Positions 1-20,000 of a stretch of DNA of 20,000 nucleotides are shown piece after piece. Below the pieces are notes generated by a model. That model made no database searches and was not told where the DNA came from. It saw only the letters and a list, made by a program, of their open reading frames with translations. The DNA lies in assembly GCA_008632985.1 (NCBI GenBank), contig QPGO01000197.1, positions 115,713 to 135,712 of the forward strand. Reading direction: 5' to 3'. Each line of letters opens with the position of its first letter. The stretch's first letter is position 1. Origin of the DNA: Psammoneis japonica (lineage: Eukaryota). A program made the translations under genes and the position numbers.

Positions 1-482
1 ATGCGGCATGCGAGCGCATGCATCAAACTGTTGGAAGTGTCTTGCGCACTTTGCTTCATGTTTGTCCTCCACAGAATGTTGAGCAGGCCAATCAACTGGT
101 GGACAATGCATTGGCAACCGCCATGCATGCAATGCGATGTGCGGTTTCTCGTGCTCTCAAGATTTCACCCGGTGCTGTGGTTTTTCAACGTGATGTGATT
201 CTCGACTTGCCGGTCCCAGCCGATCTTGCCGCCATTCAAGAACACCGACAAGCGATCATCAATGCGAATCTCCGTCGAGCCAACGCTAAACGCCGATCCC
301 ACGATTTTCAAGTTGGCGGACAAGTTCTGCTCAAGGCCATCGACCCAACCAAGCTCGAGCCACGAGCTCACGGTCCACATCCTGTCGTTCAAGTGCATGC
401 TGACGGTGCGCTTGCGGTCCAACGTGCACCTCATGTGACAGAACGATTGAACACACGTCGCGTCGTACCGTGTCACACCTGA
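1..482 (+). mobile_element. Ty3/Gypsy LTR retrotransposon pol C-terminus (end of integrase core plus GPY/F-type module), eroded by TpA mutation
   Basis: Translation reads ..CERMHQTVGSVLRTLL..ATAMHAMRCAVSRALKISPGAVVFQRDVIL..NAKRRSHDFQVGGQVL..KLEPRAHGPHPVVQVHADGALAVQR..ERLNTRRVVPC. This matches the Gypsy integrase tail (ERxHQT..L, SPG.lVF.RDM, KL.PR..GPY.I..VH.NGT..I, ER.NIRR..P). 5' part lies outside the window. Confidence 0.9.
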
Positions 483-582
483 GGTCAAGGGTTTTCTCCC
501 CAACATTTGGGTTTCCCTTCTATCCTCATCCATTGGAATTTAAATTTTTTGAGTCCCGCATGATTCTCGACACTCGAGTCAT

Positions 583-594
583 GGAAGGGAAGAG
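583..594 (+). other. Polypurine tract (PPT) of the Gypsy element
   Basis: GGAAGGGAAGAG, about 100 bp after the pol stop and immediately followed by TG. Confidence 0.75.
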
Positions 595-722
595 TGCAGT
601 GTCTCGCACCTTATTTTTCTGACACACAGCATTAATGAACCTGTTAGATATAACGGAAGCCGTTGTAACGGGCTTCGCTGAAAGCGACCCTCGTTACCTC
701 GGTCTTTCGCTCACAATTTTGT

Positions 723-746
723 NNNNNNNNNNNNNNNNNNNNNNNN
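723..746. other. Assembly gap (N run)
   Basis: Run of N. Confidence 1.
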
Positions 747-777
747 ATAAGTAATCATAAGTCATCATAAGTCATCA
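747..777 (+). repeat. Short tandem repeat, about 3 x ATAAGT(A/C)ATC
   Basis: ataagtaatc ataagtcatc ataagtcatc a. Confidence 0.8.
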
Positions 778-1064
778 ACAGCCCTCACGACTCAAAACAT
801 AGAAAGGCACATGAATAAATAATGCATAAACAGTATTATGTTCTTCGCCAAACAAGACTAAATTTAACGGATAACCGTTAAAAACTACATAACACCATTG
901 ACAAAAATTTCCGTTGTGTTCATATAAATATACATAACTCATAAAAATTCGCGGACGGTGCTGTGTTGTTGCGTGCATCGCACAAACCATCCTCATGATG
1001 TTACCAACAGACATACACCGCCAACATTTCTGCTCTTCAAGATAGGAACTAGTCGTTGTTTACT

Positions 1065-2295
1065 ATGAGGATTTCAACTGTGTGTGCTGTTACAAGTCTT
1101 GTTGTTGCCCTGAGTGCTGCTGTTGAAGGAACCTTTTATCCTGCAAACAACATAGAGAATTTCAGTTTTGCAGGCCGGTGGCAACAGCTTGAGGATGATG
1201 GTGTTGTCAGGTCGGACTGGCCGTGCAGCAGAGTGCAATTCAACATAAACATGACTGCAGAAGATGGCGTCATTACCCTCCGAGTAAAACTTCATCGGGT
1301 GCGGCTCAACGCAGTCGTCACCAACGCAGTCACCGGCGAACTGGAGCAAACAACGATTCTGAAAGGTAATTCGTTTCGGCAGAGAAGGATAAATACGGCA
1401 TTCGAATTGAAGCACCGGAATGCACACCGTCACACTGACAAAATTGACACAAGCGGCACCCTATGGCAATGGTTTGGGCAAGTCAGCCACGTCGGTGCTT
1501 GAATTCTATGGAGTAGAAATGGATGACGATGTCGCGACTCTTTCGCTTCCACCAAAACTGCCGGTACACCGGATTGGTTTTATTGGTGCCAGTGATACGG
1601 CAGGCTTTTGTGTGGATGGTACTCCGCAAGCATGTGACCATCTCGTTCGACCCTGGAAATACAACAATTGCGACTCTGCATATCCTGGCGTCTTGGGAAA
1701 ACGTTTGAATGCCGAGGTGAGCGTCCAAGCCATATCAGGCATTGGACTGACGCAGAATGCGTTTGCGAATTTGCCAGTGGCGCTTGGTGAAAAAACAATA
1801 CAGGATTATTACAACCGAACCCTTCAGACAGAGACGCTGCCTTTTTGGGACTTTGAAGAGTGGCGACCACACCTTGTGATTGTTTCTCTTGGTGGAAATG
1901 ATTATAACCACCAAGAGGAGGTACCTTCCAACGAGACTTTTGTTCAAGCATATCAAAAGTTTCTTTTACAGATTGCCGAACCATATACAAACGATGAAAT
2001 TCCAACAATTGTGAGTATATGTGGGCAAGGGGACCCGACGGAACTGAGCCGAGATCCAAACAATGATCGTTGTCGGCCTTGTCCGTACATACAATACGCG
2101 GTCGAATCCTTTCAGACTATGCATGGTGCAACCATTCCGACCGAATACATTTTTGTTCCATGCGACGGCACGGTTGTGTCGGGAGATGGTGATATTGGTT
2201 GTGACGGCCACAAGAACCGGCTTGGTCAAGAGCGGGTGGCTGACTTTTTGGAACCAAAGCTTCGTGAAATCATGGGCTGGCCCAACAGCCAATAA
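1065..2295 (+). CDS. Secreted carbohydrate esterase family 2-like (CE2) SGNH/GDSL hydrolase, split by two apparent 1-bp deletions at about 1380 and 1412
   Basis: Signal peptide MRISTVCAVTSLVVALSAAVEG; CE2 N-terminal module (FSFAGRW..SDWPCSRVQF); SGNH blocks RIGFIGASDTAG (Ser nucleophile), AISGIGL, SLGGNDY and GCDGH. ORFs 1056-1502 and 1420-2295 join if the extra C and G seen in the paralogue (about 4279 and 4311) are restored. Confidence 0.85.
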
Positions 2296-2812
2296 GTTCG
2301 ACAGAGCCGATGGCTACATCAACGAGCGGAGGTGTTGCGATGACTGTCGTAGCCTACCCATGTAGTGCACGGCAGCATTTTGGCATTATCGGAAGTTAAC
2401 TTGCTGCAAAGGGCGACGTATTATTTCAGCTTCTTCCTTCAGACTTAGTGAGCTCTTGTGTGATGAGAACTTTCCTCTCTCTTCTGCACCGGTGTAGTCT
2501 CGAGATTATGAGCTGTAGCTACACAGATGTGACTTTTCAATCGCTTTGGGCTCCTAAGTGTCAGCTAAGTCGCAAAGCGTCAACCGCTTATTTTGCCATA
2601 AGAATCTTTGGTGAAAGACATAAGACAGCGTCGTGCGCAACAGAGTCACTCTTGCCGTGAGTAGGTTCAACACACGTCGTATTGGATAGTTTACAGGTTT
2701 TAGCTGTTATAATAGACAATGTCTAATGTGCAATACACTGACGTTTCGTTACGCACTGGCATATTTTGGAATGGTGTGAACGTGCTGCGATTTTCCGCCA
2801 ACAAAAGTCGGA

Positions 2813-3604
2813 TCAAGTCAAGAAGCCAGCATCCACCAATCCCTTGATTTTTTTACACTCGACCTTGTGATTTCTCTTCCATGCAGCACGTTGGCATTCT
2901 TTGGAACAAAATTGGGCGATTTTGCAGGCGGAGCACTTTTTCATGACTCTTGCAGAAACCACCTTTTGACAGCCCGGACAATACGCCTTGCGCCCATCCA
3001 AGCAATGGCAATCAATGCGGCGAGCGAGAAACGGAACCACATCATCGCCGCAGTCAATGCGAGCAACCTCTCTGTAGCGATATTTCAAGGCGTCCGTTTC
3101 AGAGGAAAACTTCGGCTGACTGCCCGTCTCTTCTTCCGCAAGTTTTTCAATCACCACGCATACTGCGTCAACAACGGAGCCCTCTCCGGAGGCAACTGGG
3201 GGTCACCGTCCACCAGGGCGTCAACCGCCGTGGAAAAAAGAAAGCACGCAAAATCTTTTGTAATCGGAATTTGATCCTTACAAGCATTCACGGCATCTAC
3301 GGCGGGGCTTAGTTGGGTGTTGTTCCAACTAATTCGCACAAGCCTCGTTCAATTTTGACATTGACATTGAGTAGGACATGAATTTACTTTTGTTGCCTTG
3401 ATGGTTGTAACAGTGATAGCACGGTTCACCATTCGGTTTGTTTGCCTTGTGGATACAAAACGGGTTGTTGCACGGACAAGCCGCGGGTGCTGGTCTCTTT
3501 TCCGCAACGCAGCCTCTGCACAACCGTTTTCCCCACTTTGTTAAGTTCAAAGGCAGTAAAGTCCGCCGAACCAGCTCTTCTTGACAACGGTAGCAGGTCG
3601 GCAT
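2813..3604 (-). CDS. MYND-type zinc-finger protein, frameshifted near 3158 and 3335
   Basis: C-terminal CPGCQK..KKCSACKIAQFCSKECQRAAWKRNHKVEC is a canonical MYND finger, preceded by FLARRIDCHCL. Upstream ORFs 3151-3339 and 3329-3604 (MPTCYRC..CRGC) overlap it in different frames. No clear intron signals. Joining the three ORFs is inference. Confidence 0.7.
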
Positions 3605-4340
3605 GGTGTATGATGATGGTTTTATAATCGTCAATCTGTTTCCACTCTTCTTGATTCTTGATGCAATGCTAGATGCTTAGCTACTGTAGCTATCGAAACT
3701 GAAAACTTCTGTGCGCCGCAAGCCGCAAGGCAGACAACGCCTGCAATGAGGCACAGAATCAAGACCAACACACACCCGAGACACTGACAAGACAATCCCC
3801 GTGGACTGACGTCCGTCCCCCAGCCGTCCCGACGCCCGTCGCAGTTTTGAAGTTCGAAAGTTGTGCACATCGAACAAAAACCATCCCATGGTTATGGTGT
3901 CACTGCCAACAGACAGCACCAACCTTGTTGCTTTTCAAGCTACAGCCGTCGTGTTGCTGTGAGGATTTCAACTGTTTGTGCTGTTGCAAGTCTTGTTGTT
4001 GCCTTGAGCGCTGCTGTTGTTGAAGGAACCTTTTGTCCTGCAACAATGCAGAGAACTTCAGTTTTGCAGGTCACTGGCAACAGCTTGAGGACAATGGTGT
4101 TGTCAGGTTGGACTGGCCATGCAGCAGAGTGCACTTCAACACAAACATGACTGCAGAAGAGATGGCATCCTTGCCCTCCGAGCAAAAATTCATCGGGTGC
4201 AGCTCAGTGCAGTCGTCGCCAACACAGTCACCAGCAAACTGGAGCAAACAACAATTCTGAAAGGAAATTTGTTTCAGCCAGAGAAGGACAAACATGGCAC
4301 TCAAATTGAAGGCACCAGGGTGCACACCGCGGCATTGGCG

Positions 4341-4730
4341 GACGTGCTCCAGCCCCAGGTGGGACTCCGTGTGACATTGGGCCCGTAGAATTCTACGTGC
4401 GAGCTCCGCAGTGCAAGAATTTAATTGATGGATGTGTTTGTTTTCAACATCAAATAGACGGCCAAGTTTGTGGCACAATTGTGCCTCTCACCACTCGACG
4501 TTTTTGCAAATGCGCCTGCCCTGCGCGATTCTCAAGACGTCACAGAATCGCGCTGTGACAAAAAATGTCAAAAGTTTTTGGACGGATCGCTCAATGACTG
4601 CACCGTAAAATGACACAAAATGTCGAAAAAATCACGCAGAAATCTGTGTGCGCGACATGCGACGTGATTAAAAAAACTGTCGACGTCACAGCTCAGCAGT
4701 GCGAGGTCCCACCCAGACCTGGAACGCGTC
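4341..4730. mobile_element. Non-autonomous TIR element (MITE, 390 bp) inserted in CE2 copy 2
   Basis: Absent from the intact gene. Left end GACGTGCTCCAGCCCCAGGTGGGAC versus reverse-complemented right end GACGCGTTCCAGGTCTGGGTGGGAC. GGCG flanks both sides (4337-4340, 4731-4734). Internal 14-bp palindrome CGTAGAATTCTACG at 4384-4397. Confidence 0.85.
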
Positions 4731-5517
4731 GGCGCTGACAAAATTGCTGACACAAAAGCGGTGCACCCTGTGGCAACGGTTTGGGCAAGTCAGCCATGCC
4801 GGTGCTTTAATTCCACGGAGTGGAAATGGATGACGCTGTTGCAACTCTTTCAACTCCACCAACACTGCCAGCATGCTGGGCTGGTTTTGTTGGTGCCAGT
4901 GATGTGGCAGGCTTTTGTGTGGATGGCACTCCGCAAACATGCAGCCATCTTGCTCAACCCTGGAAATGCAACAATTGCAACTCTGCATGTCCTGGCATCT
5001 TGGGAAAACGTTTGAATGCTGAGGTGAGCGTCCAAGCCATTTCAGGCATTGGACTGACGCAGAGTGCGTTTGCAAATTTGCCAGTGGCGCTTGGCAAAAA
5101 AACAATGCAGGGTCATTGCAACCGAACCCTTCAGACCAAGACACTGCCTTTTTGGAACTTTGAGGAGTGGCAACCACACCTTGTGATTGTCTCTCTTGGT
5201 GGAAATGATTGCAACCACCAAGAGGGGGCACCTTCCAATGAGACTTTTGTTCAATCACATCAAGAGTTTCTTGTGCAGATTGCCACAAGCCATTTACAAA
5301 CGATGAATTTTCAACAATTGCGAGCACATGTGGGCAAGGGGACCCGGCGGAACTGAGCCAAGATCCAAACAACAATCATTGTCAACCTTGTCCACATGCA
5401 CAAGATGTTGTCAAATCCTTTCAGATTGCGCATGGTGCAACCATTCTGACCGAACACATTTTTGTTCCATGCAACGGCCCGGTTGTGATGGGAGTTGGTG
5501 ACATTGGTTGTGACAGC

Positions 5518-5908
5518 CACAAGAACCGGCTTGGTCAAGAGCGGGTGGCTGACTTTTTAGAACCAAAGCTTTGTGAAATCATGGACTGGCCAAACAGCAA
5601 ATGCGTTTGACAGAGCCGATGGTTGCACCAACAAATGGAGTTGTTGACACAAGAACCAGCTTGGTCAAGAGCGGGTGGCTGACTTTTTAGAACCAAAGCT
5701 TTGTGAAATCATGGACTGGCCCAACAGCTGACATGCGTTCGACAGAGATGATGGCTGCACCAATGAATGGAGTTGTTGACACAAGAACCAGCTTGGCCAA
5801 GAAAGGGTGGCTGACTTTTTAGAACCAAAGCTTTGTGAAATCATGGACTGGCCTGACAGCTGATGCGTTCGACAGAGCCGATGGTTGCACCAACAAATGG
5901 AGTTGTTG
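5518..5908 (+). repeat. Tandem triplication of an approximately 130-bp unit (CE2 C-terminus plus start of the 3' UTR)
   Basis: AAGAACC(G/A)GCTTGG..GACTTTTTAGAACCAAAGCTTTGTGAAATCATGGACTGGC recurs at 5521, 5651 and 5783. Confidence 0.95.
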
Positions 5909-6382
5909 TGATGACTGCCAGACAACTGCGGACATTGTTGTCTGCTCATGTGGTGCCATGTGCAACATTGCAACTTTGTCAGAAGTTAACTTGCTGTAGA
6001 AAGTGACTTTGGTTTTAGTTTCCTCTTGCATTGGTGAGCTTTTGGATGATGAGAACTTGCCTCTCTCTCTGCTGCACCAGGCAATCTTAAGACCAGGTGC
6101 TGTTGCCACACGTGCATCTCTTGAGGAGAGAGAAAGAGATTGTTCTAAGTCAGAGTGATTGTGGCTGATGCGTGCAAAGCTGCCATGTGTTTGGAAGTTG
6201 TGGTGTCTCTCATGAATCAGGCTGGAGGTGTTGGCATCCTTTTGCACTGCCAGGAATCCCACTGCACCAGTCTCATTTTCAAGCAAGAATCTTCCACACC
6301 AGTGCTCATGTCCCAAGTTTCTCAGATGCGGAAGATTGGAGACCAACAGGAAATGAAGTGGTCTGTGCTTCCCCCTGCATGA

Positions 6383-6424
6383 GTGTGTGTGTGTGTGGTG
6401 GTGTGTGTGTGGGGGGGGGGGGGG
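6383..6424 (+). repeat. (GT)n microsatellite followed by a poly-G run
   Basis: gtgtgtgtgtgtgtggtggtgtgtgtgt followed by a G homopolymer. Confidence 0.8.
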
Positions 6425-8177
6425 TGCTGTGCGTTGCTGCTTCTGAGGTGCTTTGTGCATTGCAGAAGCAGCACTCATGGCTGCGAGCACCTGACAAGCC
6501 ACGGCAACCTCACTCTTTTCTTTCACCAATGTTGCACTGCATGTTTGACGAGTTGAGAGTGAGTTTTTGCTTGCAGCCCACACCACCCACCCATTGTGGC
6601 TCTCTGGCAAGAGCTCCAGTTCTGGGTTCCTTGAGTTGCAAGCTCTGGCTTGAGGTCTGGTGCCAGTGGCTTGCACCACAACCAACCAGAGTGCTCAAAA
6701 TCAGGATCATCAGCCAACAGTGAAGAGCAGAGTCAGAGAATGACAGAGGTCAATTGACCAGCAATTGCTGAAGAATCAGCTGGTTGGCCATTGAGCAAGT
6801 CAAAATGACAAGGAATTCAAAGACTCAGGTTGCACCTGGCACTGGCAAAGCTGGTGCTGGAAGCAAAACAAGAGCAGTGGTGCTGGGTGCTTGCTGAGGA
6901 AGCAGCACATGCTCCAGCCACACACGAGCTTTTGTTGTGATCTCAGGACAGCCAGCAATGCTGAGCTGGGAGGATTGCCTCAGTGAATGGTTGTGATTTC
7001 CAAGTGCATGTGCTCATGATTGGTGTGCCACACAAACAGCACCCAGTTGCTTGTGCACTCTGTGGGAGCATCTTTGCTGCAGTTGTGCCTGCTGTGCAAT
7101 CTTTGCAAGTTTTTCACATTTTTGATCTTTTCAACTCTGCTGAAATTTTTTGCCAACAGACAGCACACCACCGACCAGGGAGGTTTCCACAGAGAGAACG
7201 TTTGATGTGCGGCTGCTGCAGCGCACCTTGGATCCTGTTGCATCATGGCATTTGTTGATTCCGCTGCTGGCGCGGCCGTGCTTGCTGGGGCAAGAGCTGG
7301 TGGTGGTGGTGGTGGTGGGGTGGAGGTTGAGAGTTCAAATCTGAGGCTCTGTCAAAAAAGCAATTGTGGCTTGTGAGGCAAAAGAAGAGCTGCCGCCGAG
7401 TGCTTCGCCAGCCTGGAGCCACTGTTGCTCTGTGTTTTGCACTGGTCACTGGCTGCCATCAAATGGCCAATGGAGTTGTGTGGTTCTGTTGCATTGGGGC
7501 CGGGAGACACAGAAATGGATTGCAGTTGAGTCACATGAAGAGCTGCGGGGGCGGTGAAAAAAGACAGAGCTGGAGCATGGGATTCAGATGGGATTGAACA
7601 CAACCAGGCCTGCGGGGAGCATTGACCACTTGTCTTTCTTTGTGGGTGTGGGTGCATGTGTGCCGTTGCATGCTGCATTGCCTGTACGTGCACAGGGCCC
7701 TGCCGTCGGGGCCGGCATTGTGGTGGCTGAGTGGCGTGGCCACCGCACCGGTGACGCGGATGACCGTCACATTTGATGTCTCATGCCATTTTTGGGGCTG
7801 CAGCGAGGTGCACGGACACTCTTTTTTTTCCAATTTATCGCCACAACAGCACATCGCACAAACTCACTTGTTGTTTGATGTGTTTTCCCCAGTCTGACTT
7901 TTTCATGTAGAATTCACGACAAATTGTCTTTGTGTGCAACTGAACACATTTTTGAACATGCCACGCCGGCAATCCCAATTTTTCAGAACTTTTGAGCTCT
8001 CCTGAAAAACCGTGCCATGCACCAGTCGCAGGGAATTTGCCGATTTTTTAGGATGTCCCCACAACCTCTCATGTCCTCAATGACAATTCCAAGAATCCGA
8101 AGAATTCATCTGCACTGAACAACCCATGCCCTTTCAAAATCCAAGGGACACACTTTCAAATTCAGACGGACAAACCG

Positions 8178-8207
8178 ACTGCCCCACTGCCCCACTGCCC
8201 CACTGCC
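8178..8207 (+). repeat. 8-bp tandem repeat (ACTGCCCC) x3 plus a partial unit
   Basis: actgcccc actgcccc actgcccc actgcc. Confidence 0.85.
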
Positions 8208-8489
8208 GGACCGACACGAAAAAGTCTGCAATCACCAACCACTGAGTGGTCAATGATTTGTTCTTCTGCTCACGCATGTCATGCTTCGAGCAGTCATGCA
8301 ATCTGTCCGTCGGTCTGTGCGTGAAGCCAAAAAATGACAAAAGAAAACAAACAATGAAAGAAGGCTCTGCGTGCGTTGCAGGTTGCAGCAGTGAAGCATC
8401 CAGCATTGCTGCGATCGCTGCATGCTGCGTCTCTTCATCCTCCCCACCTTGCCATCATCTTGAGTGCCACTTTTGACAACAAGCCTTCC

Positions 8490-9272
8490 ATGACTTCCTT
8501 TGACCAACTCGACAAGGGTGTTCAGCGTGGGCTGCAAGTCCTTGCAACACAGCATCGGCATGCTGTCGTTCAAGCAGTTCTCAAGAAAGAAGATGACTTT
8601 GGCAGGACAGAAAGTCATGAACTGTACAAAGGCTGTGCGCAAATCATGAAGGAAGAGAATTTGTCCCCTGCTGCATTTCTGGCTCGCTCTTTTGACATGA
8701 AGGTGCTGACGGGTCACGCTGAGTGGCTGGAAGCACCCTGTGACAAAAACAACGACACCGTGACCGACTTGTGCACATGCTTGGAACAAGCGTGGCTCAA
8801 CCGAGAATTTCCGAACAAATCAATTCCGATGTGTGACAATGCCAATCATGAGGAAATTGAAGGGAGGAAGAAGAAGCTCGAGCGCGAGGCCCGTGAGAAT
8901 TCGTCGTTCGAGAAGAATGATCCAACAGAAATGACCAAGCCACACTGCCGGTTCTTCATCTGCCTTGCACATGAAGAAAAGGACAACAACCAACCTCCTG
9001 AAAACTTCTATGAAATGGCAGAAGAGGCGGCTCAAGCTTTCTGGGAATTGATGTTTGGAACCTGTGGGCATGCCAATTGCCACTTGGATTGCCCCGGTTG
9101 GCTTGCAAACAAATTCTTCATCTCTGCTGAAGTTGAACTTGAAAACATGGAAACCACTGGTGTTCCGGAAACTGCAGAACTGATTGATCAAGAAATCTCA
9201 ATGAAAGGGGTGTTCAGATTGGATGCGGGTGATGTTGGAAAGAGTTACGTTGAAATCACTCGTGTGGAATGA
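8490..9272 (+). pseudogene. TpA-eroded gene of unknown function (260 aa, frame still open)
   Basis: Protein-like, charged and helical composition (MTSFDQLDKGVQRGL..SPAAFLARSFDMKVL..AWLNREF..EEAAQAFWELMFG). Only 3 Tyr, with Cys/His at plausible Tyr positions. Lies within the TpA-depleted domain. Could still be expressed. Confidence 0.55.
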
Positions 9273-9483
9273 ACGCCTGGTGTGGCACATGGCTCTTGCA
9301 TTGAGGTTCACAGTGCCACTTGATTGCCAGGGGACAGCTCGGGGAACACATTCCACATCTTGTGAATGGTCGTGCGGTGGCAGAGACACGTTCACATCAC
9401 CGTGACAAATGTTGCTTTGCATTCTAATGACCAACGACAAAGGCTGCAACACAACTCAAACCATTGTGCAGAACTGCAGCCAT

Positions 9484-9940
9484 TGCAGTGTGCATGCAGA
9501 CAAAAGGTTGTTTTTGTCATGCCCTTTGTGACATTTAAAGGCTGCAACACGTCGCTGTGATGCATTGGCTCTTGTTGGCAGCTGTGTGTTGCACTCCTCC
9601 CCATGTGTCACGCGTCCATGCGGCTCTTTACTGACATGTGCTGACACTGCACGGTTTTGGCAGAACAGTGTGGGTGCGTGCGAAGGAACATGCAGAACTG
9701 CACAGAGTTTTTACGCGTTCGACAGTGATCAACGTTGCTGCAGACAACTCCCACTCAGGGTTTCGAACCCCTGGCCTCCTGCCTGATGGTTGCGATGAAC
9801 TGCTGCATTGTGAACTCACAATGCAGTGTGCATGCAGACAAAGGTCATTTTTGTCATGCCCTTTGTGACATTTAAAGGCTGTAACACGTCGCCGTGACAC
9901 ATTAGCTCTTGTCAGCAGCTGCACACTGCACTGTCCCATT
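9484..9940 (+). repeat. Pair of approximately 120-bp direct repeats (9484-9605 and 9822-9940)
   Basis: TGCAGTGTGCATGCAGACAAA..TTTTTGTCATGCCCTTTGTGACATTTAAAGGCTG(C/T)AACACGTCGC occurs twice, 338 bp apart. Confidence 0.9.
9747..9815 (-). pseudogene. Possible tRNA-derived remnant (B-box/T-arm)
   Basis: Minus strand reads ..GCAGGAGGCCAGGGGTTCGAAACCCTGAGTGGGAG, resembling the 3' half of tRNA-Asp/Glu (GGTTCGA in a CAGGG/CCCTG stem). No intact anticodon arm. Confidence 0.35.
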
Positions 9941-10515
9941 GTTGCCGTTGCATCTCTCTAGACTGCAAATTTCAGTTTGTCGTGTTCGCAAGCAGCTGCA
10001 GTGTTGCACTCATCTTGCAAACTTTCCTTCCTTCTGATTGTTCCGTCCTTCTCTTGCTTGAGATGGTCCCTGCCACGCATGCCGGCAGAAGTCAGTCACC
10101 CGATCTGGGGGGGAAGCATTTTGGTTTTAGGCGGGCGGGCTCATCGCGCCCTTGCCCAGTCATGATGTCACGATCACGATCACGTCCATCCATCTGTCTC
10201 ATCAACGCAGACGGGAAATTGACCGTGCTTCCACCAAATGGCAAACTGCCAACTGCTGCTCTAGATCAGAGAGGGTCATCACCAGAGTGCAGCCACAAAA
10301 AAAGATGAAATTGGTGCCTGGAGATGCTGGTCCATGGGCATTCTTGTGGCGCACTGAGAGCAAAGCTTTTCTGCATTTTGTGCACAAACCATCCCCTCTT
10401 GAGCCCAAGCATCTCGGCATGGGGTCATTCACCACAGCATGGGCACATCATTCCTCTTTTGTCACTGCCAATTGGGAGGACTTTTGCTCCTTTGTTGCAC
10501 CTCATGTAACAGCAT

Positions 10516-10945
10516 CTTTCTGGAAAACTTGGAAGAGCAACAGCAGCTCTGCACCTTGTGATTGTCTCTGTTTTCTGTTGGTGCAAACAACCACAGCCAT
10601 CAGGAAAATGTGCTTTCTTTGTTCAAGTGCATCAAGAGTTTCTTCTGGACATTGTCAAGCCACATGCACATCATGCAACTCCAGCGCTGTGAGTGCATGT
10701 GGGTGAAGGGACCCCCGACCGAGGTGAGCCAAGACCCAAACAATGGTCATTTTCAGCCTTGTCAAAAATCCTTCTAGATTGGCGTTCATGGCACAACAAC
10801 TCCATTGGAACACATTTTTGTTCCATGTGATGGCACAGTGATCTCAAGGGAGATGACAATGTTGGTTGTGATGGCCAAGAGCGGGTGGCTGACTTTTTGG
10901 AGTCAAAGCTTTGTTGAGAAGTCATGGGCTGGCCCAGCAGCCAAT
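10516..10945 (+). pseudogene. Third, more decayed fragment of the CE2 gene (3' part)
   Basis: Matches about 1851-2293: CACCTTGTGATTGT, TTTGTTCAAG..CATCAAGAGTTTCTT, GAGCCAAGACCCAAACAATG, GAACACATTTTTGTTCCATGTGATGGCAC, CAAGAGCGGGTGGCTGACTTTTTGG, CATGGGCTGGCCCAGCAGCCAAT. Confidence 0.9.
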
Positions 10946-11330
10946 TTTGAGCACAAAAAGCAATTGGCATTGATGACTTTTGAGGAAAAAGCAGCTGAGA
11001 CTGGTTGGCAAATCCAAGTGTTGTTTGAGCCCACAAATGCTTTTTGACTCTCTGCTTGGCATGTCTTGCTCTTCCTCAAAACTGCGCTCCACACCTCTAA
11101 TGTCTCAGGGGCAAAACAAGCATTTGACAATGGAGAACAAAAGGACAATGCAGCCATTGACAATCAGCAGATTGAAGGATCTCTTCAAAGATCCAAAAAA
11201 CCAAGAGCTTGTTGTCTTGTCAGCTTGTTCTTGCATGACAGGGGGAGGCCTTGGTGGAAGCTGGTGTTTCTCATGTTTTTAATTCGTTTGTGGGACAGGC
11301 CCACATCACAAGCATGATGGCAGACAGACC
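10943..11330 (+). pseudogene. Decayed CHAT (caspase-HetF-like peptidase) domain fragment
   Basis: Read across frameshifts: NFEHKKQL..IQVLFE..ALHxS-(C)xG-QNKHLTMEN..LKDLF..ELVVLSACSCMTG/EALVEAGVSHVF. This matches the CHAT motifs LHFSxHG and LVxLSACxS..G.AF..AGV.HV. Confidence 0.65.
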
Positions 11331-12638
11331 TTCATTTGTGCATTCATCCAATGCATTGAAGCCACCAGCGCTGCATTTGCCTCCTCCTCGGATGTCCACT
11401 TTGGAGTCATCTTTGGAGTTGTGGAGTTGCTGATGCGCTGATCATGGGAGTGGTTGAGCTCCTCTTTGCATTCCCTTGTGCTTCTTCTTTGCATTTGAGA
11501 CACAGGTCTCTGCTCTCTTCTTGATGATGGAGTTTGACTCTTCCTTGTCCTGAGGTTTCTGACTGGGCTTGTTGTGGAAATCACTTCAGCACCCCCAAGT
11601 GCTTCACAGAGCTCTTCACTTTGAAAGAGTGACCCGGTCAAACATTTTGACCATGTCTTGGCCACAAAGCCACCTTCTGGGACAGCAGCATTGTTGAGGT
11701 TTTTGGTTTCAGCAATCATCTTGGATCTGCTCATGGCGGCTGCATCTTTTGTGGCTTGAGTTGGTGCGGGCTCCCCATGCTGACTGACTGACAATGTGCC
11801 GGGTTGGTCATCAACCAGGGACTCCAGCCAATGTTGCATCCACAGCCAAAGTGCCCAACAGAGCTGATGACTGCGCCAACAAACAGGGGCATCACAAAGA
11901 CTGCCAGGCCACTGCGACATTGTTTTGCCTGCCCACTCCTGCGCACAGCGCTGCAGCAGAGTTGTGGCATCAATCAATGAGGAGCATGAGATCCACAAGA
12001 GGGGAGGCAGTGCAAAGCTCGCTCTCCACTCACAAATGTGCGCGAGGTTGGTGAAAAGAAAGAGCGCGCTCGCAGCTTGCTCTGGTGGCTTGCAGCGCCA
12101 ACAGACTCCAAGAAGCAGCTCTCGAACATCGGCAGAGCTTGAGAGCTCCGTTTTGAGCCTCTGCAAAAAAGCAATTGTGGTGTGATGTTCACCCTGCCTG
12201 GAAACTGTTCTCTGGTGCGTTGTCGTGTTTCTCTGCCAAGCCCAACAGCCACGTCGAGTTGCCGCCCTCGTCGTCTGGCCCCCGCTTGCTTTTTCATGGT
12301 GATGCTGGCCTGGCCGGAGGGAAGTTTCGCAAGTTGAAGTTCCCATGCGATCTTTCTTGCGTGAGTTTGAAAATCTGAAGCGCAACAACATGCGTTTCTC
12401 CGGCTGGCAGCCTCCATGGCAGGGCAGCTGCAATGACATCCAATGGCACTGCCCAAGTCACAAAAATGGCCCCTGCTGTGGGTTGGGCAATAGGACAATG
12501 CTCGCATAATGCGACGACAAATTTTGTAATGACCTTGAGAAAAATTCGAAAAATCCGTTGCTCCTCGCTCCTGGCAGCGCAGCAATGCCGTCAACACGCC
12601 CCATTCACTCTTCATCTCGTTGTAGTAGATTGTAAACC

Positions 12639-13724
12639 ATGCTGTCAAAGAGCCTCAAACATGCTGCTATTACCATTGCTGTAGGGCTTATTACATGGGA
12701 ATTATGTTTTTTACTCAGAGTTCACTCGTCTTCTGCTCTCTCCTCCTCGTCTTATTCGGTCGGACTTCATCAAGCCAATAAGTTTGAAAAGTACAGTGGC
12801 AATTGGAGGTCACGACCGTTGGTGATGGTTTCCAATGGTTGCTCTGGAAGCACGTTCGCAATTGCGTTTGCACGAAAGCTTGTGGAGCGTCACACGGGGT
12901 TGGATCCCACAGTCAGTTTAGCACATGACGAATCCTCTGAATTTCTTAAACACCAAAACAACAAGCTCTTTAAAAGAAAAATGTCAGACCCGGTTTTGGC
13001 AGACAAGGACATGGTCATCGATAGCTACAAGCACGTGATGAGGAATCATTCTCAAGTGTTTGTTCCCAAAGTTCTGGCGCCTCATCTTACACGTGGGGTG
13101 GTAGAAGGACTCAAGCAGCTGAATCCTCGTTATGTCTTGATGTACCGCAGTAATATATTGGAACGGATTATTTGTGACATTCGTGATTGTTTTCTACCAG
13201 AATCAAATCACCAATCTGTGTTTGAGAACGGTACTCGTTCCGATTTTTGTTATGAGCGACGAGAGCACCCTGAAGTCAAAACTCTGGCTCTTGTCAACAA
13301 GAAAAACTTTGAAGAGGTGGTGGCAAGAGACATGAAAACGTGGGGCTGTGAAGAAGCTTTGAAACGTCCGTCTTTAAAGTTGAGATTGGACCAGGCAATG
13401 GATTTTGACAATAAAAAGGAAAACTACCCTCGCGTGGAAAAGGAACTTCTCGAAGCCTTTCAATACGTGCCAGAAAAGTCGGTCGAATTCCAACAGAGTG
13501 TTGACGAATGGAAGACGTTGCTACTGAGCTGGGATATCGAACCGCAAGAATCCATAATTGTGGATGAAATGCGCAGTAAAGGTATTGATAAGCGGAATCA
13601 CAAGAGCGTCTTGAAAAATGTTTACAACACGGATTTGATTGAATCTCTATTTCAATACTGGGCAAAGACCCCCCACTACTGTGACTGGCGATGGATGATG
13701 CATGAGCGTCGAGAGAAGCCATGA
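12639..13724 (+). CDS. Type II membrane sulfotransferase-like protein (P-loop fold, Stf0-like motifs)
   Basis: 361-aa intact ORF with normal Tyr and TpA content. N-terminal anchor AAITIAVGLITWELCFLL; 5'-PSB-like VMVSNGCSGST; 3'-PB-like YVLMYRSNILERIIC. The CDS is confident; the function is inferred. Confidence 0.7.
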   Translation: MLSKSLKHAAITIAVGLITWELCFLLRVHSSSALSSSSYSVGLHQANKFEKYSGNWRSRPLVMVSNGCSGSTFAIAFARKLVERHTGLDPTVSLAHDESSEFLKHQNNKLFKRKMSDPVLADKDMVIDSYKHVMRNHSQVFVPKVLAPHLTRGVVEGLKQLNPRYVLMYRSNILERIICDIRDCFLPESNHQSVFENGTRSDFCYERREHPEVKTLALVNKKNFEEVVARDMKTWGCEEALKRPSLKLRLDQAMDFDNKKENYPRVEKELLEAFQYVPEKSVEFQQSVDEWKTLLLSWDIEPQESIIVDEMRSKGIDKRNHKSVLKNVYNTDLIESLFQYWAKTPHYCDWRWMMHERREKP

Positions 13725-13979
13725 AACAACTAGTTGACAATCGAGCTAGCTAGTATAGCCCAAAGCAATAGCCGTTTACACAAGGAATGAAACAACAAAT
13801 TGAAATGTGAAAAACAAATATTACTAATATTACCCAAAGCAGCACATAACTGATTGGATTGTGGAAGAGAGCTGCAACTCCTTCTCTTTACTAAAAACAG
13901 AACTACGCATTTGCCATGCTGAAAGATAAATATGGAAACATGCATTGTACTGTCAAAGCATCCCTTGTGTATACGTCTT

Positions 13980-16900
13980 TTACCTTTTGCTTTTGCGGAT
14001 GCGCAGCGAGCCAAGAAATGAACGTTTCGGCTTTGCCCCTTCACTCGTATGCTTAGCCTTGTGGCCTTGATTTCCGTCAGATCTCGGTTTCTTCAACATT
14101 CGTGCAACCCGTCCTTTGCTCGCCTTGTCTTCACAACAAAACAAGGCCATTTTGCAAGAGACACCTTTTAATTCCTTTGCACATACAAACTCCACCGACA
14201 CTTCGGAGTCCATGGTTGGAGGTGGTGGCATCTCTGCTGACTCGACAACTGGCACTCCCACAAACACCTTGCCCGCATCCGTGGCAGCCGCAACCCGAGC
14301 GGCACGGTTCACTACAGGACCGACATAATCGGCACGACCGGTCAATGGATGCGGGGCCATTCCTGAAAAGGCACCAGAATGAATACCAACTCGGATAAGA
14401 TTGGTGGTATCAACTTCATCGTCAAAGGGTGCGTTACCAACCGCCGTCATGAGCATGAGCCCAAACTTGACAGCCGGATCCAACGATTCGAATGCAATCA
14501 CCCATTTGCCTTATTCGTCGAAACAAGAAATTTGTTAGTTCATTTCCAAAGAACCCATCGGCATGTATCGACTGCCTATTTACCTTTGTCTTCTTGGCAT
14601 TCGTAGCCCGGCGGCGACACTTGCAACAGTAGAGACCTGACCACTTTTGTCAAGATCGAGAATGTCCGCTGCGCCAAGTCATCAGCAAAGTCATCTGTCC
14701 CCGATGGATAAACAAACATCATTGTAGCGGTTCCACTCTTATCCGGTGCATCCAAGAACGATGTAGTAAGTCTGCGGGTAGTGTCAGCCTGCGGGGAACC
14801 TCCGTCCTCTTGCCGGCACAAGAGAAGCGTGGCTAGTACTACCGGTCGCATTGAAGTAATCATAGGCCAATTCCTTAGGAACCAACTGTACGACACCCTT
14901 TGCAATGATACCTTCGTCCATAAATTCACCAGTCATGAGCACATACTCTCCATAATCAACTACTTGAGGAGTTCCCAACTGCTCACTCAGTTCAGAAACA
15001 ACCCGCCAAGTTTCGGCAGTTGCCAGTATCTGTCCACCAAAACACAGAGCCTCGATGCTTTTTGCCAACCGAAACGTCTTTCCGGAATACGATGCACGAC
15101 CACTAACTTCGTTGATCTGAGGCGTCGCACTGCCATGGTGGATACCCATCCGGACACGAAGGCCACGAAAGCGTCCCTCTTCATCGATGCCTGCATCAGC
15201 CAAGGCTAGAATACTATCCGACCAATCTGCCTTGTACAACTCCATTTGAGCCTCGAGAGCAAATCCAATGGCATCCACGGGATCATGAAAGGCCAAGTGA
15301 AACGCGTCGCCTTCAGTTTTGATTTCGTAGCCACTATGGGCGGAAATGCACTTTCGGAGGATTTTGTCATGCAAGCCCAACGCCTCCTTCATGGCATCAG
15401 CGTCAGCCTCCCAAAGAGAGGTCGAGCCTTGAATGTCGGTAAGAACAATCGTGACCTCACCAGACGGGGCATCGCGCTTGCTCTCTCGCAACGACATGGT
15501 ACTAGTGAGGTGCTTGAGGAGCTTACGTTCTTCGACAAGCTCGTCCATAATTCGACGGTGCTCCCAATTTTCAATGGTTTGCGCCATGAGGAGAGCCATT
15601 CGTTCAAGCTCTAATTCGTGGTCCTTGGTGAAATCGTGCCTCGGAACTGTGTCCAACATGCAAAGCACAGCTACGACGTACCCATCGGAAGTGATTATAG
15701 GAGTTCCAACGTAAGAACGCATGGGACTACCAGTGTAGCAGCTCATAAATGCCTCATCCTTCCACAAATCGGGGACAACAAACGTGCCTCGTTTCATAAT
15801 TGTATAGTTGCAGGCGGTGGTGCCGCGTCCATAAGCAACGCAAAAGGGGGCGCCTTCGCTGTCGGAGCAAATCGTCTCTCCAGCTTGAATAACACCAACA
15901 CCGCCGTCCTGAATACCAAGGGCGAGCTGATTCGAGTGGTTATGGATTGTGATGGCAACAACTGGAAACCGAAATAGAGACGCAGTCCTGCCGACCAATC
16001 CCTTTAACTGCTTCGCCATGGGCGAGTCGGGATCCATCTTGTGCAATCCCAATGCCTCTACCCTGGATACACGGGCCATGTCGTCTCTTCCCACGGGTGG
16101 CGGAGGCATACCAGCCTTAGCAGCCTCTTCGAAAACCGAGGAAGGAATGTGTTGCCGTTCCAACTCTGACGCTCGATACCGGTTTGCCACAAACGGCAAC
16201 AAGCTTGAGTTCGAAGTCGGGCCATCATCAACATGTGGTGGTACGTTCTGCTCAGACTTGGACGACTTGGGGCCATCATCAACTTGTGGTGGTACGTTTT
16301 GCTCCGACTTGGATGACTTTTCTTCTTCTTCTTTAGACTTGAGATCCATGTATTCTTTCCTGGCGTTCGCAACTTGTTCTGTAAGTGACTTGTTGCGATC
16401 TTGCAATTGTTTTCGTAGACGGAGTTGCTGCTCCGTCATGGCAGCAATCTCGGCGGACAAGAGTCGCAAGGACTCCTCTTCACGTTGACTCTCTTCATAG
16501 GTATCTGTGGTAATCTGGCATACTACTCCTAGTCTCGACCCGTCATCGTTCTTGATGACGTGACCCACATAGGTTGACCCAATGGAACGAAAGTCCTCGA
16601 TTGTCACCTCACGAATGACAAAATCTTTGGACTTGTCCAACACCAACTGAGAGCAGAAACTTTGATTATGATCCACAACTGTTCCTCGATCCATAGGTAT
16701 GAGTTCACCGTTGGGTCCACGCAGATTTCCACAGAGCACGTGCTGACCATCTAATCGACACAGGTGTACGCCGGCATAATTGGCGCTGGAATTGGATCCC
16801 ATAAGTTGTCTCGCAAGTCCATCAAACTCCTGAATCTCTGAAATGGGAGTATACGCGGTCAAGTCATACTCTTCTGCGGCCAAAAAATCAGGCACATCTT

Positions 16901-17270
16901 GATTAGGAGGGATGCTTGATTCTGTTGACACCTTTTCTTCTTGTTTACAATCATCCGTGTTGTTCGTCTCGACCACAGGTGTCGTCGGAGCAGACTTGTC
17001 CGTTTTCTCTTGATCCAACAAGGATGACTCCAATGCTCGCGCAATCACTTTTCGATGAATTTTGGACGAAATCTCCAACTCGTCCAGCATCTCTTCGAGT
17101 TCGCTCGCATCATCTCCAAGGGAACTCAAGAGACCGCCGTCAATCCCGGAATCGCGAATCGAGGCAGCATACTCTTTATACTTTGGACCACCCAACGAGA
17201 CTACGGAATCAGCCACATCGTCCTTGGTCCACTGCTCCAAAGGACGACTCTTCGATTCAGAGTTGCCCAT
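13980..17270 (-). CDS. Class III nucleotide cyclase: SAM + two GAF + two tandem cyclase homology domains; one intron (14510-14583) and one apparent frameshift (about 14795)
   Basis: Start MGNSESK. SAM: LEQWTKDDVADSV..YAASIRDSGIDGGLL. GAF1: SFCSQLV..YVGHVIKNDDGSRLGVVC. GAF2: TACNYTI..VVPDL..RSYVGTPIITSDGYVVAVLCMLD. CHD1: VTIVLTDIQGSTSLWE..EIKTEGDAF..LRVRMGIHHG. CHD2: GYECQEDKG/KWVIAF..IRVGIHSG..ADYVGPVVNRAARV. Confidence 0.9.
14510..14583 (-). other. Spliceosomal intron (74 bp) in the cyclase gene
   Basis: Minus strand AAAG|GTAAAT...CTAAC...TAAG|GC. Splicing joins ECQEDK-G-KWVIAF in frame. Confidence 0.85.
16219..16318 (-). repeat. In-frame 51-bp (17-aa) tandem duplication in the cyclase linker
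   Basis: KSSKSEQNVPPQVDDGP KSSKSEQNVPPHVDDGP. Confidence 0.9.
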
Positions 17271-18386
17271 GTTGTCGCTGTTGTATGAAACAATATTTGA
17301 AAAGTGAACCCGTTCTTCTGATTTCGCAAGATCCAGATCGCAAATCAAATCTTAGGTCTCGCGTTCTCTCTTTTGAGAGTACTGTAGCTACTGCATAGGC
17401 CTACAGTAGAGCTATCGTGTATCGCATGGGCGGCGGGCGGTGCGGCGTACCGTACAGTAGAGTTCTTCTCTGTCATGTCGTTGACAACTTCAACTTGTAA
17501 CGGCGAAAAAGAACGTTGTCACCAACAAAACTCAAAAACTGACATCATGAATGACGGGTAGGGCCCTAAGTAGAAAAAATCAAGTAGCTTTTTTACTAAA
17601 AGTCAGCTGGATTTCTACTGGCAATCTTGGTGCAGTCTGCACATCACCCCTAAAAATGGAAAAAGCACAAAGAACCTGTCATGCATGGAGGCCATTTGGC
17701 GCGACAGGAGCTCGTTTTCTGACTGACAAGCAGTTTTCAGGCAAGTGGAAGTAGATTGAGTAGATTTCGAGCTGTTTAGAAAAAAAAAAATCATGATGTC
17801 GGCAGTTGATTTTTTTGGCGACACTTGTCTTGGCCAAACATTTCTCGCCCCTGTGCAAGGGCTGCCGTGGGATGCATGTGGCTGTGGTGTGTGATGACAT
17901 CATCACACTCGTTGAGCTGAGCATGCACACAGCTTTGCCAGCATGCACATGTCATCAAGGTGGCATGAGATGAAAATTGTGAAAATCATTTCTGCGTGCA
18001 TTTTCTGTGAAAATCATGGGAGTCAAAGATTCGTTGTCGCAAAAAAGCGCTGTGTGTGTTTTCAGCAAACAACATGGTCAGCATGCGAGCAACAGCAAGA
18101 GCATCACTCAATGGAAACTCTGGATTGCTCATTTGCATGAAAGGCACTTCCAAGATGAAAACACTTGTGAGCTGAAAGCTGAAGCATGTGGGCACATTCT
18201 CTGCGCTGTCTCGGCCACCTCTGACAAATGTGAAAGAAGCCGCAGCTTTCGACACTTTTTCCCACTCAAGCAGCCAATTCAAAAATTTGGGGCAAAAAAC
18301 ATGACCTTTTTTGCCAACTGCAATGTCATGTTGATTGAATCTTGAAATGCGCAGCTTCTTTTCATGGACAAGTCAAGAACACACCA

Positions 18387-18648
18387 GGCCTGTTCCAGCT
18401 CCAGGTGATGCGCACAGGCTCGATTCCCATCACTGGCCCATTTTTGCATTCAGTGCAACAAACTCCTTAAAAATCAGGTTTTTTTCAAATCGAAGGGTGA
18501 GTGCACACAAAACTCATGCATTTTGTGTGCACTCACCTTTCGATTTTCGAAACGATCAAATTTGAAGGAGTTCTTTGATGCGCTGAACTGCACAAAGAAT
18601 TGGCCTCTTGCGTGATGGATTTCTCATCCCCTGGGGCTGGAACAGGCC
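18387..18648. mobile_element. MITE (262 bp) with 24-bp TIRs, 4-bp TSD and a central hairpin
   Basis: Left end GGCCTGTTCCAGCTCCAGGTGATG versus reverse-complemented right end GGCCTGTTCCAGCCCCAGGGGATG (22/24). ACCA flanks both sides (18383-18386, 18649-18652). Inverted repeat at 18487-18546. Confidence 0.85.
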
Positions 18649-18812
18649 ACCAATGAAGAATGCAGGACACTTGTTTGAAAGGAAACACAGCATTCAATGG
18701 CATCCTGGGAGAGGCCAAACTGAGGCCATCATTTTGTGTGGAAACATGCAGAAATCACACCGGAAAAATGTCCCAACAAATTTTGCCTTTTGCCATCATG
18801 GACCAGTGAAAA

Positions 18813-18849
18813 NNNNNNNNNNNNNNNNNNNNNNNNNNNNNNNNNNNNN
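18813..18849. other. Assembly gap (N run)
   Basis: Run of N. Confidence 1.
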
Positions 18850-20000
18850 CATCAAAGTGCTCAAGATGACACATCATCTTGAACCAATGCAAGGGCCTTT
18901 TTCATCAATTCTGTGGATGAAGGCTCCACTTTTTTGAACACATCATCTGTGACATCAATGTCATGGAATGACCAAGATGGCAATGAATTTCCTTTTGTTT
19001 TAAATGTGCCACCAAAAGGTGAAAGAAGTCAAGAAGCTGCCACACGGAGGACCCAAAGAGCTTGCACAGGGAAACTCAAGTCATGGTTTTTGATGGAAAT
19101 GATGATGGCAATGATGTGATTTTGGATTGATCTTTCGACTCTCTTCCCTTTGAGACTTGGAAAAGTTTGTCACATCAGATTTGGGGGCAAACGGCATTGA
19201 AGCCACCCAGGCAAGAAGTGAAAAACATCTTTGCTGCTTTCGCCAAAGACATCAACCATGAAACAGATCAAGATGTTCTTTTTCTGCTTCTCTCTGATTC
19301 AATGGATTGTGAGCTGCCCCCTTGTGATTGCAGCTCAAAAAATGTTGCCAGGAGACCTGCCACCTGCTAGAATCAAAAGCAAAATCAGGTTGAAGCTGTC
19401 AGCTCACTGGTGCTCTCCATGCCAAGCCCCTTTGCAACCATTTTACAAACACCACAATCACTCATGGACTCCTTCATGCCTTTGAATTTTCTGTGACAAG
19501 CTGTGCTTGCAACTGGAGACTTTAACTTTGAACGCTGTGCTCACAAATTCTGTGCAACAAGTGCAAATCATTTGTGTCTTTCCCAATGCTGTGCCTCAAT
19601 GCCAAAGCTTTGTCACTGTGCAATCAAAACCAAAATCAGATGCAAGCACAATCATTTCCCCAGTTGTCCAGAATCTGTGCTAAGATGCCACCGACAACAC
19701 CATCTTTGCAGCTGAAGCTGTCAGCAATGTTTCAGGCAGAGCACTGCAGGATGCTGCGCGTGACGAGCATTCAAGCACTTTCCTCACTTTTGCCCAAGAC
19801 TTGAAAGGTTGAACACTGCTGGACTCCTCGTTGATCTGCACTCAAACAAGACCACTTCAAAAGGATCTCCATGTCAAAACCAATGCCTTTGCACCTGACT
19901 TTGTCGCAGGCTTGTTGCTGTCCTCCAGATGTGCAACAGACTCAGAGTTTTTCCAATTATTGAAGCGGCACTCCCTCTTGTTCACTGTGGTTGTTGCTTT

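Follow-up and report, generated by a model that had tools for sequence, protein, structure and literature searches.

The subject of this article is a 20,000-nucleotide (nt) stretch of DNA from Psammoneis japonica (contig QPGO01000197.1, positions 115,713 to 135,712 of the forward strand), the whole of which we call the window, and the fate within it of a duplicated esterase gene. The parent gene, copy A (968..2524 with its flanks, plus strand), sits in an ordinary genic block. Copy B (3860..6111, plus strand), a TpA/CpG-hypermutated pseudogene of A that would be its dead local duplicate, lies at one end of an 8.8-kb block of the chromosome from which the dinucleotide TpA has almost disappeared. 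Copy C (10552..10945, plus strand), which lies in the same block, is a further pseudogene of this esterase, older and only partial, recognised by tblastn and by a robust alignment to A 1870-2293. Comparison of these copies and of the surrounding blocks establishes, at the level of sequence, a domain-confined, strand-symmetric and TpA-specific A:T-to-G:C process with a preference for T-A-Y, which has operated beside CpG decay.

The esterase gene and its copies

Copy A is an SGNH/GDSL-type esterase gene, as judged from its 87 homologues (the best at 66% identity) and from a match to the Pfam family Lipase_GDSL_2 that, at 26.1 bits, stays under the 32.9-bit cut-off. Its open reading frame (ORF) spans 1065-2295, although in the window it is split over two frames (1065-1502 and 1420-2295), with a switch that tblastn places near 1376-1423. 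Contigs from a separate public run (X1), which may be the window assembly's own sample, have an extra C after 1379 and an extra G after 1411 but are otherwise identical over 1193-2236; with both letters in place, the gene reads by hand as a single open frame of ~410 codons. It is therefore intact, the break being due to indel errors of the window assembly, which means that the preliminary description of this DNA was right to call the parent intact once the X1 letters are used, but not for the window assembly with its two frames. Over window positions 900-6200 (5.3 kb), 12 indels of 1-2 bases are listed relative to X1 and one more is unlisted; two of them, in the window only, break the esterase frame. 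Copy A has kept its reading frame, its conserved Tyr residues and a TpA observed/expected ratio (o/e) of 0.48-0.62.

A and B are homologous from ~100 nt before the start codon to ~230 nt past the stop, and the alignment of A 968-2559 with B 3860-6150 has 1530 columns that are 85.9% identical. Copy B has a GTG in place of the ATG (tactatg in A reads tgctgtg in B, as had been described), one in-frame TAA, indels, a 405-nt insertion, a tandem triplication and 6 gapped codons. Its remaining substitutions are spread evenly over the three codon positions (38/34/31), the pattern of a pseudogene under drift. X1 contig depth over B (54-58) is that of single-copy DNA, like A.

Inserted in copy B is a high-copy element (4330..4735) resembling a miniature inverted-repeat transposable element (MITE), which was recognised by its absence from A, its depth and its terminal inverted repeats. 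The latter are 28 nt long (4338-4365 and 4706-4733) and 75% complementary, and the summed X1 contig depth of the element exceeds 100,000 vs ~57 in the flanks, that is, thousands of times single-copy. The copy in the window has a TpA o/e of 0.10 and a CpG o/e of 0.87, and most family members have T/A at the CpG positions of this copy (4330-4735). Further along, a repeat search and tblastn (5648-5773 and 5780-5857) identify three tandem ~130-nt copies of the 3' end of the gene (5518..5908, plus strand). At 5560, 5690 and 5822 (TTTTAG), these three 130-nt units have in common a TpA newly made by G-to-A, which survives in the poorly converted TTAG/CTAA context. Another site, 5373-5374, reads CA in the window and TG in both X1 and copy A, a double change that would be expected if G-to-A had made TA and the TpA process had then resolved it on the opposite strand.

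As for copy C, the 374 columns that can be compared across all three copies are identical between A and B at 332, between A and C at 293 and between B and C at 282; B and C are thus each nearer to A than to each other. No sign of a larger tandem duplication was found, since no copy of the sequence downstream of A (2524-3860) could be detected within 6101-8300 (score 31 vs a shuffle maximum of 34).

Fates of TpA and CpG in copy B

Over the 1530 aligned columns, the 54 TpA of A read TG in B at 22 sites, CA at 20 and something else at 8, and only 4 are kept. The 78 CpG read CA at 30 sites, TG at 20 and something else at 3, and 25 are kept. Copy B has thus lost 93% of its TpA (50/54) vs 68% of its CpG (53/78), which bears out the proposal in the preliminary description that TpA decay is more complete than, and separate from, that of CpG. 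The hand counts given there for A 1501-2280 (27 TpA and 44 CpG) are reproduced exactly. Their fates need slight correction: instead of 23 of 27 TpA turned into TG or CA, the gapped alignment gives 25 TpA in ungapped blocks (21 TG or CA, 3 other, 1 kept), and instead of about 28 of 44 CpG lost, it gives 43 aligned, 27 of them lost (26 to TG or CA, one to TT). The hypermutation had been placed at 3860..6110, where it is indeed present, but the pattern reaches well past these coordinates. Outside the coding part of B, TpA is changed at 4 of 5 sites upstream of the start and at 8 of 14 downstream of the stop.

The dependence on context is strong and, as had been anticipated for A>G, the rates are far from equal. 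A>G is found at 23/56 TpA vs 17/338 in other contexts (Fisher p=6e-12), the latter comprising ApA (7/113, 6.2%), CpA (3/114) and GpA (7/111), and T>C at 20/55 TpA vs 21/344 elsewhere (Fisher p=7e-9), with 3/81, 10/136 and 8/127 in the individual contexts. For CpG, the equivalent figures are 22/81 vs 19/268 elsewhere for C>T and 31/79 vs 17/309 for G>A. From these alignments, TpA loss can be estimated to outpace the sum of A>G and T>C in other contexts ~20-fold, and the ratio of TA to TG+CA in the purged blocks described below (49 to 2402) suggests ~50-fold if these blocks are at equilibrium.

The choice of strand is even and unclustered (22 TG and 20 CA, with 22 runs vs 22 expected), and what matters beyond the dinucleotide itself is the 3' base. 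Per-strand conversion reaches 24/50 at TAT and 20/37 at TAC, vs 6/18 at TAG and 3/25 at TAA, and where TAA is present on one strand only, it is the other strand that is hit (17 vs 3, p=0.003). Survivors tell the same story, if the purged blocks started out with the composition of the genic ones: TTAA remains 11 times in purged vs 11 in normal blocks, ATAN 2 times vs 107. The TpA process prefers T-A-Y over T-A-G and both far over T-A-A, with TTAA spared. CpG loss, which fits ordinary 5-methylcytosine (5mC) decay, is mildly skewed by the 5' base (TCG 20/49 vs 8/31 to 12/43 for the others). A single enzyme for TpA and CpG was considered and rejected, this mild skew being no evidence of a shared 5'-T rule.

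Purged blocks and genic blocks

Copy B is only part of a wider pattern, for on composition the window falls into TpA-purged and normal blocks. The first purged block (1..500, plus strand) is a fragment of a gypsy retrotransposon encoding the C-terminal part of the integrase (open frame 3-479), with CpG intact. A second, CpG-poor (3700..12490, block 1), holds copies B and C, the MITE-like element and a relic ORF, and another, also CpG-poor (17790..20000, block 3), runs off the end of the window. Two normal genic blocks serve as controls, one (501..3699) with gene A and, on the minus strand, a Cys-rich gene at ~2830-3604, the other (12491..17789) with an ORF at 12639-13724 on the plus strand and a GAF-cyclase gene at 13980-17270 on the minus strand. 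The window is draft sequence with two runs of N, and its genes have long uninterrupted frames.

Together, the purged blocks amount to 11,362 nt with 49 TpA vs 727.6 expected (o/e 0.067), a CpG o/e of 0.47 and an excess of TG (1.72) and CA (1.67). The remaining 8,638 nt, with four apparently live genes, have a TpA o/e of 0.55 and a CpG o/e of 0.96, and their non-coding TpA is at 0.55-0.86. This contrast (0.067 vs 0.55) confirms that the process acts in non-genic, apparently silenced DNA, as had been suspected. Block 1 has 0-2 TpA per 100 nt vs 1-9 outside it and, per 500 nt, a TpA o/e of 0.0-0.23 and a CpG o/e of 0.09-0.87, while block 3 is at 0.0-0.08 and 0.16-0.48, respectively, from 18001 on. 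In the genic blocks, TpA and CpG o/e are 0.41-0.74 and 0.83-1.21 (501-3699), and 0.29-0.73 and 0.80-1.22 (12491-17789), but CpG falls to 0.56 in the last 500-nt segment of the latter, which straddles the boundary. The edges of the purged blocks are sharp, within ~100-200 nt, and adjoin the starts of genes. In block 1-500, TpA is at 0.08 with CpG at 1.08, so TpA loss is independent of CpG loss and, as this block suggests, may come before methylation.

The retrotransposon frame 3-479 is of Ty3/gypsy type, its 88 homologues having RVT_1, RNase H, rve and integrase zinc-binding Pfam domains. Its 159 amino acids include no Tyr, where ~3.7 would be expected, and none of the 88 homologues has less than 0.8% Tyr. 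Its named relatives belong to the diatom genus Cyclotella. The best homologues of three genes in the window (66%, 49% and 71% identity) are all environmental proteins, and the named ones, from ochrophytes, haptophytes, dinoflagellates and a choanoflagellate, are all at 53% identity or less. A collection of 15 billion proteins contains none of four ORFs from the window that were looked up there.

The relic open frame in block 1 (8490..9272, plus strand, 260 codons) has 25 relatives at E<=1e-3 (best 5e-18) in a protein family that is uncharacterised, and in comparison to these its conserved Tyr have become His/Cys; it has no match in Pfam, in the atlas or among viral contigs. Three homologues cover its C-terminal part, and all three have Tyr at five of the seven columns of interest there. 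The family has two domains, and the only three TpA left in this ORF are all in-frame Tyr codons (chance ~0.04), six other conserved Tyr having been lost. TpA-free DNA is without TAA and TAG, so long open frames such as 8490-9272 and 11306-12439 are no evidence of genes.

Other features are minor. Rfam and tRNA scans of the window found nothing. The purged blocks contain an unclassified direct repeat of 93 nt, 85% identical (9503-9595 and 9840-9932), and an unclassified inverted repeat with 57-nt arms (18456-18577). Within block 1, TG locally outnumbers CA at 6000-8000 (73 vs 38 at 6001-6500 and 74 vs 44 at 7001-7500), a region that includes a (GT)n/G run at 6380-6425, and the two are balanced elsewhere in the block. 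In the genic blocks, two tandem 51-nt copies, 88% identical, lie in the minus-strand GAF-cyclase coding region (16212-16313), and two alternative 114-nt X1 contigs correspond to 3268-3379, with depths of 27.9 and 30 vs ~58 in the flanks and 5 differing positions, which suggests two alleles of a diploid. Neither of two metagenome loci that we compared (L001 and L002) shows extreme TpA depletion. The contig of L001, which encodes a 57%-identical relative of the esterase, has 1 kb (1001-2000) with the lowest TpA o/e of the two loci (0.18-0.23) and normal CpG.

Direction of change

Four independent lines of sequence comparison agree that TA is ancestral and that the change ran from TA to TG/CA. 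Polarisation by outgroups, which the preliminary description had proposed, was run with 42 outgroup proteins and favours ancestral TA: at the 17 TpA sites where the change is non-synonymous, they support the residue of A 13 times and that of B 4 times. Most of the sites favouring A are Tyr codons (TAY), conserved in A and in the outgroups, vs His (CAY) or Cys (TGY) in B. At Y178, for instance, 38 of 42 outgroups have Tyr and none has His. Where B and C both read TG or CA at a shared TpA site, one has TG and the other CA at 5 of 12 sites (4 of 9 within the robustly aligned part), a discordance that implies a TA ancestor hit independently in each copy. The same is seen away from the esterase. 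In the integrase frame, the four Tyr-dominated columns read CAC, TTT, CAT and TGT (3/4 His/Cys), and in the orphan ORF 8490-9272 the seven such columns read CAC, TGC, TGT, CAT, TGC, CAC and TAC (6/7 His/Cys).

The DNA itself is also real. X1 contigs carry the same TG and CA bases in B and read TA at none of the converted sites, which disposes of the concern, raised at the outset, that raw TA had been misread; this agreement rules out assembly or base-calling error, but not a strain-specific history.

Comparison with known systems

By its sequence signature, the TpA process seen here is the one first reported in 2026, in Bigelowiella natans, and its kind is thus already known. Mettrop et al. 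(2026; bioRxiv 10.64898/2026.01.13.699255) describe TpA to TpG/CpA hypermutation of integrated nucleocytoplasmic large DNA virus (NCLDV) and virophage DNA. Across 15 mutation-accumulation lines, two viral regions accounted for 231 of the 302 point mutations in the nuclear genome; 230 of these 231 were A>G/T>C, all at TpA, at ~1000 times background, and hypermutation occurred in 11 of the 15 lines only. An ADAT2-type adenine deaminase is proposed as the enzyme, without proof, and the Discussion of the preprint mentions that ADAT2 of amphioxus and Trypanosoma was reported to act on DNA. The earlier statement that no named system has this signature has therefore been overtaken; in our literature search, it was found only in this preprint (main text).

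The likeness is close, for in B. natans too the changes are exclusively TpA to TpG/CpA, affect either strand and are confined to regions, the rest of the genome being normal, and long-term TpA depletion with CpA+TpG enrichment marks clustered windows and transposable element (TE)-related coding sequences (Mettrop et al., 2026). There are differences, however. The evidence in B. natans comes from mutation-accumulation lines, whereas ours is comparative. The depletion is deeper here (o/e 0.067 over 11.4 kb vs a Rho of 0.45 in the B. natans NCLDV region) and the targets include a duplicated host gene. CpG decay coincides with TpA loss here, whereas the word CpG is absent from the main text of the preprint, and the 3' context (T-A-Y > G >> A, with TTAA spared) goes beyond what that main text describes. 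The constraints that the present locus adds are (i) targeting of domains rather than repeats, (ii) independence from CpG decay and (iii) this 3' context, including the sparing of TTAA.

Fungal repeat-induced point mutation (RIP), to which the process had been likened, likewise hypermutates by transitions in a dinucleotide context, inactivates DNA that is repeated or foreign and is read as genome defence. However, RIP is C-to-T, mainly at CpA, and makes TpA and stop codons, whereas here TpA, and with it TAA and TAG, is destroyed, and just 3 of 113 CpA of A read TA in B, against the direction of RIP. Moreover, both members of a duplicated pair are mutated by RIP, whereas here parent A is spared 1.3 kb from B and single-copy DNA in the block is equally purged, so a trigger by duplication does not hold. 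Deamination of 5mC, as in methylated transposons, accounts for the CpG half of the pattern (50 of 78 CpG turned into TG or CA in B and a CpG o/e of 0.47 in purged DNA), but is unable to remove TpA, whose loss is faster (93% vs 68%) and extends to DNA in which CpG is intact (1-500).

Among deaminases, TadA/ADAT2-ADAT3 and the ADARs turn A into inosine (I), read as G, with a 5' U/T preference as here, but their natural substrates are RNA; when the ADAR rule is set against the window, its 5' T requirement holds and its 3' G preference does not. AID/APOBEC deaminases and the WA mutations of DNA polymerase eta (Pol eta) are likewise programmed or defensive forms of hypermutation in a short sequence context. 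However, APOBEC and AID act on C, and Pol eta would need to hit ApA too, where A>G is at background level (7/113); the suggestion of a Pol eta-type WA to WG bias therefore fails.

A proposed mechanism and its alternatives

The reading that we favour, and consider probable, is that B is a dead duplicate in an 8.8-kb block that has undergone near-complete transitions at both TpA and CpG, targeted to the domain, with adenine deamination as the likely basis of the TpA part. Two processes would have been at work. One would convert TpA to TpG or CpA, an A:T-to-G:C change at a palindromic step, on either strand at random and at a rate at least ~20 times that in other contexts. The other, slower and of variable extent, would convert CpG to TpG or CpA via deamination of 5-methylcytosine. 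Both would be limited to non-genic blocks and would hit any content, be it a host-gene duplicate, a gypsy retrotransposon, a MITE or an orphan gene. Targeting would be by chromatin domain or foreignness, and the absence of mutation in parent A, 1.3 kb from B, argues for the domain rather than sequence duplication as the cue. The most likely agent of the TpA change would be an enzyme drawn to silenced DNA that deaminates its adenines to inosine only where a T precedes them. The effects would be a loss of Tyr codons and of T-preceded ATG starts (the latter seen in B), and the erasure of TAA and TAG stops; TATA boxes and AATAAA signals are expected to be lost as well.

Several observations sit less comfortably with this proposal and weigh against it. 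The ratios for surviving motifs depend on the assumption that purged blocks started with genic composition. No viral or further TE domain was found in the purged blocks, where none of 35 frames scored above the Pfam cut-off (of 46 frames from stop to stop with 80 codons or more, these are the ones clear of copies B and C, which the other 11 overlap), so that 'foreign DNA' is established just for the gypsy fragment and the MITE. At the 4 of 17 TpA sites where outgroups side with B (e.g. I127, which is Met in 35/42), TA in A may be derived or is ambiguous. Between the window and X1, copy B has 11 differences in 842 positions vs 0 in 1044 for A, but these are of mixed types and make no case for ongoing activity: the 13 window–X1 differences in B include 6 CpG transitions, one TG/CA double change and one new TA in X1; these could be strain, allelic or assembly differences. 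Finally, a preference for a 3' pyrimidine is at odds with both the 3' G of ADARs and the tRNA substrates of ADAT2/3.

Since TpA is palindromic, adenine and thymine are not separable from sequence as the attacked base, and the alternative that must be taken most seriously has thymine as the target, with TET/JBP-type oxidation to 5-hydroxymethyluracil (hmU), or a further modified T, at TpA being followed by mispairing or misrepair and hence T-to-C. The fates, the motif and the survivors are explained equally well by T>C at R-T-A and by A>G at T-A-Y, and in dinoflagellates hmU is known to take the place of T with a preference for TpA and TpC. We nevertheless regard thymine attack as unlikely, hmU opposite A being weakly mutagenic. 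The sole experimental report of the signature also proposes, again without proof, that it is A that is deaminated (Mettrop et al., 2026). A dedicated editor might not be required at all if the pattern came from a heterochromatin-specific bias of polymerases or repair, for example error-prone patch repair at methylated DNA or mismatch repair biased towards G:C. That purged blocks are also CpG-depleted, as methylated DNA would be, and hence the seat of frequent T:G mismatch repair, speaks for this, but the Pol eta motif is not what we see (A>G at 7/113 ApA vs 23/56 TpA), biased gene conversion is independent of context and incompatible with a net loss of CpG to TpG, and block 1-500 has lost its TpA with a CpG o/e of 1.08, so that damage at CpG is not needed. 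In B. natans, moreover, the process was on in 11 of 15 lines only, which its authors read as regulation (Mettrop et al., 2026). For these reasons, we hold a repair bias to be less likely still.

The two other alternatives carry very little weight. Editing could have taken place in RNA, by ADAR-like A-to-I hyper-editing of double-stranded RNA (dsRNA) followed by reverse transcription and reintegration, and indeed ADARs prefer a 5' U, in agreement with TpA (Mettrop et al., 2026, Discussion), and editing of both dsRNA strands would be strand-symmetric. However, B includes homology from before the start codon and 230 nt after the stop that is equally mutated, shows no remnant of a poly(A) tail and is 1.3 kb away from copy A, and the signature extends across the whole 8.8-kb block, including unrelated sequence and a DNA-type MITE. 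Besides, favouring 3' Y over G is the opposite of what ADARs do, all of which makes an RNA intermediate very improbable. As for a reversed polarity, in which A would have gained TpA by a RIP-like C-to-T process, or assembly errors at modified bases, the 12 listed indels relative to X1 in 5.3 kb of the window assembly and the four TpA sites of A that look derived could be cited in its favour. We find it hardly credible when outgroups conserve Tyr where B has His or Cys, when the discordance of B and C at 4/9 to 5/12 sites points to a TA ancestor, and when separately built X1 contigs agree with B and have no TA at converted sites.

Implications

A broader reading of this locus can be offered as tentative, and we would give it not quite an even chance. 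The host appears to be a diatom-like stramenopile, in which case TpA-directed DNA editing might be an old and widespread genome defence in the lineage of stramenopiles, alveolates and Rhizaria (SAR), and would have made most of the non-genic DNA of this organism TpA-free. In this reading, the process would act on chromatin domains rather than repeats, faster than and independently of the decay of methylated CpG, and the T-A-Y preference could be the mark of a dedicated double-strand DNA adenine deaminase.

Be that as it may, an additional example, far more extreme than the first and from an alga that appears to be unrelated, would establish the process as both general and old. Its independence from duplication, its independence from CpG and its preference for T-A-Y all constrain the mechanism. 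A natural enzyme capable of turning A into G at TpA in chromosomal DNA would, in addition, be of interest for base editing.

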